From: an uncultured Patescibacteria group bacterium
Lineage (GTDB): Bacteria; Patescibacteriota; Patescibacteriia; UBA2591; CALHIP01
Assembly: GCA_938030745.1 (NCBI GenBank)
Contig: CALHIP010000001.1
Coordinates: 3,817 to 67,816, forward strand
DNA length: 64,000 nucleotides
Reading direction: 5' to 3'
Of the stretch, positions 3,624 to 13,599 are shown one piece after another. Position numbers and translations under genes: made by a program. The first letter of the stretch is position 1. The number at the start of each line of letters is the position of its first letter. The notes below the pieces were generated by a model. The model made no database searches. It saw only the letters and a list, made by a program, of their open reading frames with translations, and was not told the DNA's origin.

Positions 3624-5077
3624 TTTATCTTTCTTATAACCCCCTTATTGGCATCTACCTCAACCAAATCTCCATCTTTTAGGACTTTGGTAGCAATTTT
3701 TGTGCCAATAATACAGGGAATATTAAGTTCACGAGAAACAATGGCAGTATGAGATAAGAATCCACCCTCGTCAGTAATAATTGCGGCTGCTTTTTGCATT
3801 GCCGGAACAAAAGTAGGATTTGTCATCGGTGTGACTAAAATCTCTCCTTTTAAAAATTTAGAAACTTCTTTGGTTTCTTTCAGTATGTGAACCTTACCTT
3901 TAATGATTCCGCCTGGGCAGGCTACCATACCTCGGAGTTCTGTAATTGGAACACTGATCTCTTTAATTTTTTCTTCCTGATAATATTTTTTTAATTCTTT
4001 ACCACTTAAAACCTCTGATTCACCATTGCTAAAAATAATAGCATGATCCTTTATTCTTTTTTGTACTTCTTTTCTAGGAATAACCAATTTATTTTTCTCT
4101 AAACTGCTAATTATTTCTGATAATCGAAGTGAAACAACCCCTTCATAGGAAATTTTTAACCTCTTAGCAATTTCATCAAACAATCCTTTTAAATGATAAA
4201 TATAGTAATTGGTTGCTTCATTAGCAAAATTCATCGCATAAGAAGCCTTTTTCATTGCTTTTATTATTTTTTTCTCGTAATTGCTAAAACCATAGATAGC
4301 TAAATTAATTTTTTTAGTTTTTATCTTTTTTATCTCGTTTTTAATATATTCTTGTCCTTGTTTTATTATTTCTTTCACCCTTTTCTCTATTTCTTGAAAT
4401 GTATAACCTTCGCCCCAAAAATAATATTTATTGACAAAAGCATATTTCTTTAAATGATCAAAAAGGCGTTTTTTTAGAATTTTCTTATTCTTTATACAAT
4501 CATTAGCTATTCGTAATAAATTAAGCCTTTCTTTTCCAACCATGGTTATTTTCTCAGGTTTAGAGATAAATTCTATTATTTCGTTTAAATTTTTTTTATA
4601 TTTATCTTTTAATTTATTAATGAAATCCCTAATAAAAATATCGTTGAAGAAAAAATAATAAGCATACGGGATTCCGCCGCCCCAAAGTTTCGATTGCAAG
4701 TCTGTCATTTCTTCTAAAATTTTCGCCAACTCTCTATTGGTTAATTTTTCCCATTTCTTTTTTCTTAGTTTATTAGTTTTTTCAATTATCTTATTAGCTA
4801 TTTTTTCCATTCTTTGCCCATAAAAATAAAAATAATCCGGTTTTTTCTTGTGGATCTTGCTTAATAAATTGATTAAATTTTGGTAATCATCTTCTCCAAG
4901 ATGGCGAGCGCCATTAAATTGACGATAATTTTTTATTTTATAATCTATGCCGTAGATTATCTTGGCATAATTTTTTTTAATTCCCAATCCAACTCCATCA
5001 ACGTATAATAAAGCATGATTTTTGCCTCGCCGAGCAACCGGAATCCATTTTATTTTTCTTTTTATCATATTTTGCAT
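3620..5077 (-). CDS. PEP-utilizing-enzyme mobile (phosphohistidine swivel) domain protein with divergent N-terminal domain of about 390 aa; no ATP-grasp domain (paralog 1)
   Basis: C-terminus reads [54 protein letters not shown]. This is the PEP-utilizers phosphohistidine motif with the catalytic His. The N-terminal domain is weakly homologous along its whole length to the other paralogs. Confidence 0.75.
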   Translation of the reverse strand: [485 protein letters not shown]

Positions 5078-5252
5078 CTTTTAAAATTAATCTTGTTTAC
5101 TATTCTTTTGATAAAAATTTCTAAAGATAGTGCTTCATTGAAAATTTTTTATAACCAAGTTAGATAGTGTTTAAAACATTTTTATTTAAATAATCTAAAA
5201 CAATAACTGAAAAGCTATAATAATTTATAAATTGTTAAAACTCAAGTTGTTT

Positions 5253-11579: not shown

Positions 11580-12132
11580 AGTTTAAATTTAATTATTTTC
11601 GGCAAAATTTTTTTCTTTAATCTAGCAATCAATTATTTATTAAGATTTAATTCTAGTAAGGGTTTGACTGATTTAATCAAAATTTTTAAATCATTATTTA
11701 GAGATTTTAGATCATATCTCGACAATTTCCCGATACTTCTGCCAATTAATCAAATCATTTTTCAATAAGGTACAATAAACCCTTCTCGACTTTTTGGTAT
11801 ATTTTTTAATTTTTTCTACTGAATGAAAATTTATGAAAATAATTTTTCTCTAAGGGTTACTAAAAATCTTTAGCATACCATTCAGTTAAATTCCAAAGAT
11901 CAATATAAAAATGTTTAAAAACTTTTTCTCCATCAATAACTTAAAAACCCTTCTTCTCACCTCTATAGCTACTGTTTGGCGAGGAATTTTTGAGCTAATT
12001 CCTTATTTTCTATTATATTCGAAACAAAATTCTCAGTCAAGCTTTGATATTTTTCTTATTACAAATAAAAGTTGGTAGACAATTTTCCTAAAAAAGCAAA
12101 TATATATGTCGGCTTTTTGTATAGATCAAGAG

Positions 12133-13599
12133 TCATCTTTTTTTTATAATCTTCACCACTCCCTTATTCGCATCAACCTCAACCAAATCTCCATCTTTTA
12201 AAACTTCAGTGGCAATTTTTGTGCCAATAATACAGGGTTTGTTTAATTCTCTTGAGACAATGGAAGCATGGGAAGTTATACCTCCTTCATTAGTAACAAA
12301 AGCAGAGGCGCGTTTCATAATCGGAACAAAATCAACTGAAGTCATTGTTGTAACAATAATATCACCATCTTTAAATTTATGAAAATCTGAACTTCCTAGA
12401 ATAATTTTAGCGATTCCTTTCACTTTTCCTTTATTAGCAATCATACCTTTTATTTCTTTTACTTTGATTACTTTTTCTTTTTTAGGAATCACTATCTCTT
12501 TTAAAAATAATTTAACAATTTTTGGAGGAAGTAATCTAAAACCTTGTTTATTATTTGCATATTCTAAACCGGTAACCTTTCTCTTTGGTAAAACCTTTAA
12601 AACCTTTTTATCATTTTTGTAATATAATTTTTCAATCTCTGCTGGAGTTAATTTCCAAATCTCTTTCCATGATGATAAATTAAATTTATGAGCAATTTCT
12701 TGAAAAAGGGGTCGATAGGCTAAACTGGCTCGAGAAAAAACATTTTTTCGCCACTCATTAAGGTATGTTCCTATTTGAAGGGATAAGGCAATCTGAAGAA
12801 TTCTTGGATTATTGATTTTCTTTAAAATTTTATTTCGTTCTTTAATTTTTATTTGATGTGATTTTAGTAAAATTTTTATCTCTTTTTGACAATTAATTTT
12901 AAGAATTTCTTTAATTTGAGAAAAAATATCATCAATACTCCATGGCTCTTCATTGAAATTTACTGGGATATGACTATATTTTCTTCTATAAAGTTCAACC
13001 ATTTCATTAATTTTTTCATTTTCTTTAAAATTCTTGATCTCATTTTCTTGAATATATCTACCAATTTTGAGTAAAGAAAGTTGAGAATTAAAAAGAGGCG
13101 TGCGTTCTTTGGGATAAGTAATTTTACTTGCTATAAATTCAATCTCTTGTTTATTTTTTAAAGGATAGAGTTTTGCAAGTTCTTCAATTAAGAGTTCGTG
13201 CATTATTCTTCCTAGAGTAGCAGTTAAGGGTAAAGAAGGTGTAAATTTTTCGTATGCTTCTATAAATTCACGATAAGTTTTTAAAGAAAAATCTTTCTCA
13301 ATTTTTTTAGATGCTTCAAGTAATTTATTACCATAATTTTTATATATTTTTTTGAGACTTTTTATTCTAGGTGAAAGACAAAGTTGAGTAACGCTATTTC
13401 CAAAATTTCTCAATATTTCTTCATTGTTAAAAATTGTTGTCCGAGTACCATTTTCAGTAATAATTGGAATTTGATAGCGAGGGGAAACGCCGAAATTTTT
13501 TGCATATCTAACAACACCCATTGTCTCACAACAATCATGAAAAAATGACATATTCCGAGTGACAAAAACTTCCCAATTTTTGTTTTTATATCTAATCAT
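12133..13599 (-). CDS. PEP-utilizing-enzyme swivel domain protein, paralog 5
   Basis: C-terminus reads [56 protein letters not shown]. 488 aa with a divergent N-terminal domain. Confidence 0.75.
   Translation of the reverse strand: [488 protein letters not shown]

Follow-up and report, generated by a model that had tools for sequence, protein, structure and literature searches.

Similarity of the swivel-domain 3' ends in a tandem array of split, RPH-like enzyme genes of a Patescibacteria group bacterium is probably maintained mainly by protein-level selection, with few tracts of gene conversion

In a 64-kb window from an uncultured Patescibacteria group bacterium (contig CALHIP010000001.1; the window is the whole stretch of DNA that was analysed, with a GC content of 29%), a tandem array of strongly diverged paralogous genes is marked by short 3'-terminal sequences that are far more alike than the genes to which they belong. 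Why should genes that have drifted so far apart end in nearly the same way? The first-pass annotation of this DNA offered three answers for these 3' ends, referred to below as tags: gene conversion, purifying selection on an interaction surface, or use as a homologous-recombination anchor for the swapping of variable N-terminal modules. The second appears to be the main cause. In our judgement it is quite likely that the similarity of the tags reflects, for the most part, protein-level selection on the end of a swivel domain combined with AT-biased codon use, that a few conversion tracts were added to it, and that the genes encode subunits of split enzymes resembling rifampin phosphotransferase (RPH). 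The evidence consists of a family-wide motif, a low level of amino acid-changing differences in the tags and a nucleotide identity close to that expected from codon usage.

According to the open reading frame (ORF) list, every gene of the array is on the minus strand. The paralogs A (3620–5077, 485 amino acids), B (5253–6743, 496 amino acids, with the same architecture as A), D (8323–9846, 507 amino acids) and F (12133–13599, 488 amino acids) are full-length ORFs with their own start codons. Paralog C (6824–8318) is a full-length copy now divided into two ORFs, C' (7701–8318), which holds the N-terminal part, and C proper (6824–7693), which holds the rest of the N-terminal domain and the swivel; in a tblastn search, residues 222–505 of D align to positions 7693–6830. 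Paralog C is probably a pseudogene. The four closely similar tags of these genes are located at 3623–3718 (A, the last 32 codons of the gene), 5265–5360 (B), 6830–6925 (C) and 12142–12237 (F), and the fifth, the orphan tag E (10541–10625, stop codon at 10538–10540), consists of 27 consensus codons and a stop. The first-pass annotation had located these five copies essentially correctly, and the peptide they encode is as it described, whereas the 85–95% nucleotide identity that it gave was too high. Measured pairwise, the identities are 0.885 (AB), 0.77 (AC), 0.84 (AF), 0.76 (BC), 0.81 (BF), 0.78 (CF), 0.86 (AE), 0.90 (BE), 0.89 (CE) and 0.84 (EF), still far above the background of 0.45–0.55 in the aligned bodies of the paralogs. 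It had also overlooked a sixth copy, tag D (8332–8427, PCIIATKVATKVLHDNDLIEINTNHNRVKILK), owing to its divergence: only about 60% of nucleotides and 53–59% of amino acids are shared with the other tags. No further tag was found in the 64-kb window, save for the C-terminus of the swivel domain of a phosphoenolpyruvate (PEP) synthase at 16536–16631, which is just 34–45% identical to the tags.

The fall in similarity upstream of the tags is stepwise. An immediate drop to background, as first described, applies to the N-terminal domain (about 370 amino acids), where the window paralogs share 19–26% of their residues (34% for the pair C and D), but not to the remainder of the swivel domain, since the 73 codons preceding the tag, which include the catalytic TDEGGxxSH motif, retain 40–56% amino acid and 54–64% nucleotide identity. 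Similarly, the neutral divergence of 20–25% used for comparison is no more than approximately correct. The decayed piece of a riboflavin-kinase gene that separates B from A (5107–5222, minus strand), and from which the value was taken, is 89% identical over 53 nucleotides and 74% identical over 94 nucleotides, and the frameshifted pseudo-ATP-grasp gene upstream of F gives 74% over 384 and 66% over 288 nucleotides.

The tag encodes the final beta-strands of a phosphohistidine swivel domain. In the array proteins, Pfam recognises the mobile swivel of PEP utilisers (PF00391) at the C-terminus of A, B, C, D and F, PF01326 in the product of a 313-codon gene, and nothing else. The PF00391 scores are 82–97 bits against a gathering cutoff of 23.1 (E = 7.5e-26 for A), and the matches extend to position 69–72 of the 72 positions of the profile, which places the tag inside the model. 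The swivel histidine motif, defined as T/SxxGGxxxH (PMC12167813), is present in all five proteins, among other forms as TNEGGITSH. In the Pfam model of this swivel, which PEP synthase and pyruvate phosphate dikinase also possess, the tag takes up the final ~30 positions, with the pattern (I/V)P(C/A)V(V/I)G...DG..V.VD...G.V. The window paralogs differ from these enzymes in having no PEP/pyruvate TIM-barrel.

A protein search with paralog A yields thousands of relatives in bacteria of the candidate phyla radiation (CPR) and in DPANN archaea, and the conservation of the tag is common to them. In an alignment of 76 full-length external homologues the mean pairwise identity is about 0.2 in the N-terminal domain, 0.40 at the start of the swivel and 0.65–0.78 over the last 65 residues, and the consensus ends in the window's own motif. 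The same motif across phyla means that it is a family consensus and not a feature specific to this genome. In pairs that involve sequences of other genomes and whose N-terminal domains are less than 30% identical, the tags are still 72 ± 9% identical, independently of the relatedness of the N-terminal domains. A scan at one genome per species supplied 80 loci (L001–L080) of other phyla with about 280 tags, in which this motif is again the consensus, each locus fetched with 10 kb on either side of the match (about 20 kb), so that some ATP-grasp genes may fall outside. For 90% of the tags the best amino acid match is in another genome, and this includes the window tags A, B, C, D and F; those of A, B and F (0.96) are in the Saccharibacteria locus L030 (for B also in L001) and not in the window. 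At the nucleotide level the window tags are 81–86% identical to tags of other phyla (0.86 for F and Saccharibacteria L030, 0.85 for A and Woesearchaeota L063). The strands encoded by the tag are thus under very strong purifying selection throughout the CPR bacteria and DPANN archaea.

How much nucleotide identity this constraint would entail in such an AT-rich genome was estimated with a null model in which the amino acid sequences of each pair were kept fixed and the codons were drawn from the usage of the window (43 ORFs, 16,404 codons). The expected identity is 0.76–0.82, compared with the observed 0.76–0.90, and a nominal excess is found only for AB (P = 0.023), AE (P = 0.049), BE (P = 0.003) and CE (P = 0.0035). 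The amino acid sequence and the codon bias of a 29%-GC genome alone give about 76–82% nucleotide identity, which is most of what is observed. The proportions of nonsynonymous (pN) and synonymous (pS) differences, from Nei–Gojobori counts, show where the constraint lies: pN is 0.03–0.13 in the tag, 0.28–0.40 in the upstream swivel and about 0.5 in the N-terminal domain. This comparison by region supports amino acid constraint, with synonymous sites saturated in roughly half of the pairs only. In AC, BC and BF the tag pS of 0.60–0.64 equals the 0.6–0.7 found elsewhere in the genes, CF and EF show intermediate synonymous divergence, and five pairs remain at 0.25–0.44 (0.27 for BE, 0.25 for CE and 0.41–0.44 for AB, AF and AE). 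Similarity beyond the saturation or codon-bias expectation is seen neither in AC, BC, BF and CF nor in any pair with D.

The lowered synonymous divergence of these five pairs leads to the question of gene conversion. The N-terminal domains have better matches outside the window (A to Nealsonbacteria L001 with 244 bits, F to L046 with 309 bits) than among the in-window paralogs (below about 60 bits), and F has orthologues in L046 (45% N-terminal domain identity) and L030 (35%). Judging by these matches the paralogs are ancient, and their synonymous sites would therefore be expected to be saturated everywhere. Three pairs nevertheless contain exact runs that are longer than the codon-usage null readily yields: 44 nucleotides in A and B (3660–3703 and 5302–5345; P = 5e-4), 39 nucleotides in B and E (5292–5330 and 10568–10606; P = 1e-3) and 36 nucleotides in C and E (6830–6865 and 10541–10576; P = 1.5e-3), compared with a maximum of 33 nucleotides in 37,560 between-genome tag pairs. 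Among the codons of the runs are some that this genome seldom uses (GTC, CTA, TTG, ACC), and the rare codons CCC, GTC, CTA and TTG are common to A, B, E and F. A position-specific codon preference as the source of the runs was rejected, codon choice being diverse at every position in 142 tags from low-GC loci. Tag E is a mosaic, its first 18 codons being B-like with one difference and its last 12 identical to those of C. In F, the 33 residues upstream of the tag are 94% identical to the L046 orthologue and 42–58% identical to the window paralogs, and the tag reverses this relationship, with 78% identity to the orthologue as against 88% to the paralogs. Paralog A behaves in the same way: its adjacent 33 residues follow orthology and its tag is closer to the window paralogs, the values for the two tags together being 0.88–0.94 to paralogs and 0.78–0.81 to orthologues. 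Family-wide, the best amino acid match is within the same locus for 10% of the tags and for 4.3% of the adjacent segments, with 1.9% expected by chance. Much clearer cases are other arrays, L009, L001, L044 and L046, where exact runs of 62–78 nucleotides are limited to the last 90–180 nucleotides of paralogs that are otherwise at background level.

These sequence patterns suggest that such arrays do undergo conversion of short tracts at their conserved 3' ends, and it has probably touched A, B, C and E in the window. Partial concerted evolution of multigene families, with short-tract gene conversion limited to the conserved segments of divergent paralogs, is a known phenomenon, and the array shares with it the islands of exact identity amid saturated synonymous divergence, the mosaic copy and the incongruence between tag and flank. 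It differs in that the signal is weak and patchy and most of the similarity is explained without conversion. One could still suppose that frequent conversion is what homogenises the 3' ends in this genome and that protein constraint is secondary. We consider this unlikely, as the motif is conserved equally between phyla and most tags, those of A, B, C, D and F included, find their closest protein match in another genome. Conversion is not what keeps the tags alike, because D has diverged in the middle of the array, roughly half of the pairs are saturated and no pair is identical over the whole tag. The suggestion of gene conversion in the first-pass annotation therefore stands for a minor, patchy contribution and not for the larger cause.

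Several observations weigh against so large a share for selection and codon bias, or against the conversion tracts that we add to them. The step in identity at the tag boundary is sharper than is typical of the family: for AB, BF and AF the difference between the tag and the upstream segment is 0.35–0.50, which is in the top 0.1–2% of between-genome pairs, so in A, B and F something besides selection and codon bias may be involved. The evidence for conversion comes from some 85 nucleotides in each copy and from a few P values of around 1e-3, marginal after Bonferroni correction. Finally, D keeps the catalytic histidine and yet has a diverged tag. If strong constraint acted on all copies, this would be unexpected, except in the case that D is in decay or has switched to another partner.

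Tag D alters invariant or near-invariant positions (DGD to DND, A476 to T and G479 to N) and the catalytic histidine motif of the gene is kept; paralog D could be in decay, or the interaction of its product with the partner could have changed. Tag C carries four conservative or lineage-specific amino acid changes with respect to the consensus, and these, together with the ORF break at about 7693–7701, are consistent with relaxed constraint. The GC content of third codon positions also varies along the genes. In 239 genes (the window and L001–L080) it is 0.437 in the tag, 0.421 in the swivel and 0.394 in the N-terminal domain (Wilcoxon P about 2e-7), and in the window it is 0.29–0.32 in the tag and swivel region and 0.16–0.22 in the N-terminal domain. 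This shift was not used as evidence of GC-biased conversion, the effect being too small and confounded; a context effect is also possible. Searches for population or close-relative data gave nothing: an exact scan of metagenome contigs with the 29-nucleotide core common to A, B and E found no match, A, F and the ATP-grasp protein were all singletons in a cluster look-up, and exact-protein contig look-ups with the ATP-grasp protein, A and P0001 returned no record.

The third proposal, a programmed cassette system in which the conserved 3' block is the homology anchor for exchanging N-terminal modules and the orphan tag is a by-product, has some features of the locus on its side. The copies are in tandem on the same strand with a common 3' homology block, the orphan adjoins the ATP-grasp gene, and a few other arrays likewise have orphan or degenerate tags. 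The gene copies themselves, however, do not look like cassettes: A, B, D and F are complete and C is full-length although broken, there is no silent truncated cassette, and the sole truncated copy is an 85-nucleotide remnant without a variable segment. The N-terminal domains are old orthologous lineages common to other genomes and the homology is one-sided, with identity at 0.45–0.55 everywhere 5' of the swivel domain. No tags occur elsewhere in the window, and neither the ORF list nor Pfam shows a recombinase or initiator element next to the array. Moreover, a crossover from tag to tag would delete or duplicate whole units and would not leave a bare tag. A cassette function is on these grounds scarcely credible, and the two suggestions of the first-pass annotation that depended on it, the anchor and the orphan as a product of cassette recombination, are not upheld.

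The orphan is explained more simply by the layout of the array, which, read 5' to 3' on the minus strand, is as follows. A full-length single-chain PEP synthase ORF (15510–17909), a context gene, comes first. The frameshifted pseudo-ATP-grasp gene (13599–14331, recognised by tblastn in two frames with 46% and 58% identity) abuts paralog F, and a spacer of 553 nucleotides separates F from the stand-alone ATP-grasp gene (10638–11579, 313 amino acids, PPDK_N domain PF01326 with E = 5e-101), the sole intact copy in the array. Tag E follows 12 nucleotides past the stop codon of this gene, with no swivel domain or gene body upstream of it, and a gene of 208 codons lies between E and D. After D and C comes a remnant of the 3' end of an ATP-grasp gene, its last 14 codons (6761–6807, KKIYIVESRSIATL*, recognised as repeat family D5 and by translation), 18 nucleotides from B; B, the riboflavin-kinase remnant and A complete the order. 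In many of the other loci a full-length paralog comes immediately after the ATP-grasp gene. Because the ATP-grasp gene elsewhere, and its relics here, sit directly before full-length paralogs, E is best read as the remnant of a paralog that once came next after the ATP-grasp gene and was lost by internal deletion. An assembly artefact is unlikely and was set aside, since the novel junction lies 5' of the tag, in sequence that offers no repeat for a collapse. As a candidate for an additional decayed tag, the 553-nucleotide spacer was likewise dismissed: it contains only weak matches of 24–50 nucleotides and no tag-like reading frame. In this array, deletions seem to leave in place the 3' end of a gene when a surviving gene comes right after it. 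The array as a whole would evolve by tandem duplication, decay and deletion. Orphan or degenerate tags were also seen at L026 (6065–6160), L001 (19324–19419), L028 (9769–9864), L023 (4192–4287) and L044 (about 18200–18605), one of them being an apparent stand-alone swivel-domain ORF right after another paralog.

As to its state of preservation, E matches the consensus at all 27 codons while the neighbouring pseudogene remnants have diverged by 11–35%. Either the deletion is recent or E was overwritten by conversion, and its mosaic structure fits the latter. The intactness of E could also mean that the DNA or RNA of the tag is itself functional, for instance by terminating transcription, by acting as a regulatory RNA, or by serving the gene that follows as promoter or ribosome-binding signal. 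The ATP-grasp 3' remnant similarly kept just upstream of B would then suggest that the deletions sparing 3' ends are the tolerated ones. We regard such a function as highly improbable: codon choice is free at each position of the tag across genomes, pN is far below pS, which indicates selection at the protein level, and there is no Rfam match in the tags. Promoter- and terminator-like sites occur in the region at the frequency of shuffled sequence, and none is inside a tag. The Rfam scan, run at permissive E-values, returned only a tRNA and a weak small RNA match, both outside the array.

If the tag is kept by selection on the protein, the nature of the enzyme becomes important. The AF2 model of paralog A (pLDDT 89.5) has as its top Foldseek matches the rifampin phosphotransferase RPH-Lm (5fbt/5fbs; E 7e-14 to 1e-12, TMq 0.52–0.54), with 550–580 aligned columns that span the rifampin-binding and swivel domains; the other matches cover the swivel domain only. 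Residues 3–313 of the ATP-grasp protein align to residues 4–316 of RPH-Lm (E = 3.5e-55), and the protein also aligns to a 387-residue stand-alone chain, 9goj. Since the model of A matches the substrate and swivel domains of RPH and the 313-codon gene its ATP-grasp domain, the locus appears to encode a split RPH-like enzyme, with the ATP-grasp domain as one protein and a helical substrate-binding-like domain plus the swivel as another. The order of ATP-grasp, substrate and swivel domains is that of RPH-Lm (5fbs/5fbt/5hv1; PMC4844700), which differs from the proteins of the window in being a single chain instead of the product of two genes and in sharing only about 15% of the sequence; nothing points to rifamycin as a substrate here.

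Split homologues of RPH have been characterised as two-component small-molecule dikinases, namely HpeHI, CreHI and the phenylphosphate synthase PpsAB (PMC12167813). The genes of the window share with them a separate ATP-grasp subunit (313 amino acids here, 40.6 kDa in HpeI), a second subunit in which a helical substrate domain resembling that of RPH precedes a C-terminal swivel with the histidine motif, and the adjacency of the genes. The substrate subunits of the window are shorter (485–507 amino acids, compared with 71 kDa for HpeH), there are five or six tandem, highly divergent paralogs per intact ATP-grasp gene in the window and up to 12 at other CPR and DPANN loci, and no aromatic-catabolism genes lie near the array. 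The likeness to the HpeHI type is one of architecture, the sequences actually matched being those of RPH and 9goj only. By analogy with these enzymes, the paralogs are predicted to be split, RPH-like small-molecule dikinase subunits. The kind of enzyme is therefore already known, and it is the one-to-many tandem organisation that is unusual; no description of such arrays was found in the literature searched, including a search aimed at DPANN proteins.

In RPH the phosphohistidine travels on the swivel from the ATP-grasp site to that of the substrate, over a distance of more than 40 Å (PMC4844700). If the paralogs work like RPH and HpeHI, each would have its swivel histidine phosphorylated on the ATP-grasp subunit, and the charged swivel, as in the characterised homologues, would carry the phosphate to a substrate held in its own N-terminal domain. 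Each paralog would in this way combine a fast-evolving helical substrate-binding domain with a swivel, the ATP-grasp domain being supplied separately by the single intact gene. With one intact ATP-grasp gene for four to six partners in the window, we infer from the gene counts that one ATP-grasp protein serves all paralogs. Sharing of a single partner would account for a partner-facing domain that stays frozen as the substrate domains diverge: whatever the paralog, the swivel core would have to fold and to function together with that one conserved protein. Docking of the tag to the shared ATP-grasp subunit is plausible. The similarity retained under such selection would then allow a few conversion tracts of roughly 35–45 nucleotides among A, B, C and E.

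Tandem same-strand arrays of 5–12 swivel-subunit genes, with a spacing of about 1.45 kb, are common in CPR and DPANN genomes; L001 has 12 tags in 20 kb, and L025, L026, L046 and L062 have 10 each. For about half of the largest arrays the fetched stretches were found to contain an ATP-grasp gene, which is a single copy flanking the array or, at two loci, inside it. Six array contigs (L012, L028, L046, L056, L065 and L069, the best orthologue of F being in L046) are labelled 'uncultured Gammaproteobacteria' although their arrays are typical of CPR and DPANN, which points to binning error or horizontal transfer.

Some features of the surroundings should be mentioned. The best sigma-70-like site of the region (12012–12040, minus strand; TTGACT, a 17-nucleotide spacer and TATAAT, 11 of 12 matches) is located in the 553-nucleotide spacer upstream of the ATP-grasp gene and may be a promoter for this gene and those downstream. 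Beyond paralog A, an EamA-type transporter gene (2360–3623, minus strand) is apparently split into two ORFs, 3171–3623 and 2360–3163, the second of which bears a C-terminal riboflavin-kinase domain (PF01687), either an unusual fusion or a frameshifted gene. On the other side, the tRNA gene (RF00005, 52.5 bits; 14993–15077, minus strand) lies between a metallo-hydrolase-like ORF and the PEP synthase gene, and the small RNA match, RsaF-like and sub-threshold (15121–15231), adjoins it.

From this point of view, the apparent cassette boundary is what one would expect where a domain end is highly conserved and the genome AT-rich, with traces of conversion, and the contrast between the swivel end and the substrate domain marks the likely seats of partner recognition and of specificity. 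A further-reaching idea, which we put forward tentatively and would not yet bet on, is that the C-terminus of the swivel acts as the compatibility module in a system of 'one engine, many adaptors', in which a single ATP-grasp protein charges up to a dozen tandem, substrate-specific RPH-like subunits in CPR bacteria and DPANN archaea and recurrent conversion at the 3' ends helps to maintain their compatibility. If this is true, such arrays would amount to a lineage-typical set of enzymes, not described before, for the phosphorylation of many different small molecules, for example antibiotics, xenobiotics or scavenged metabolites. If one ATP-grasp protein does serve many subunits, these reduced genomes would be devoting a notable part of their coding capacity to small-molecule phosphorylation, with a bearing on the antibiotic resistance annotations of CPR and DPANN organisms and on their interaction with hosts.

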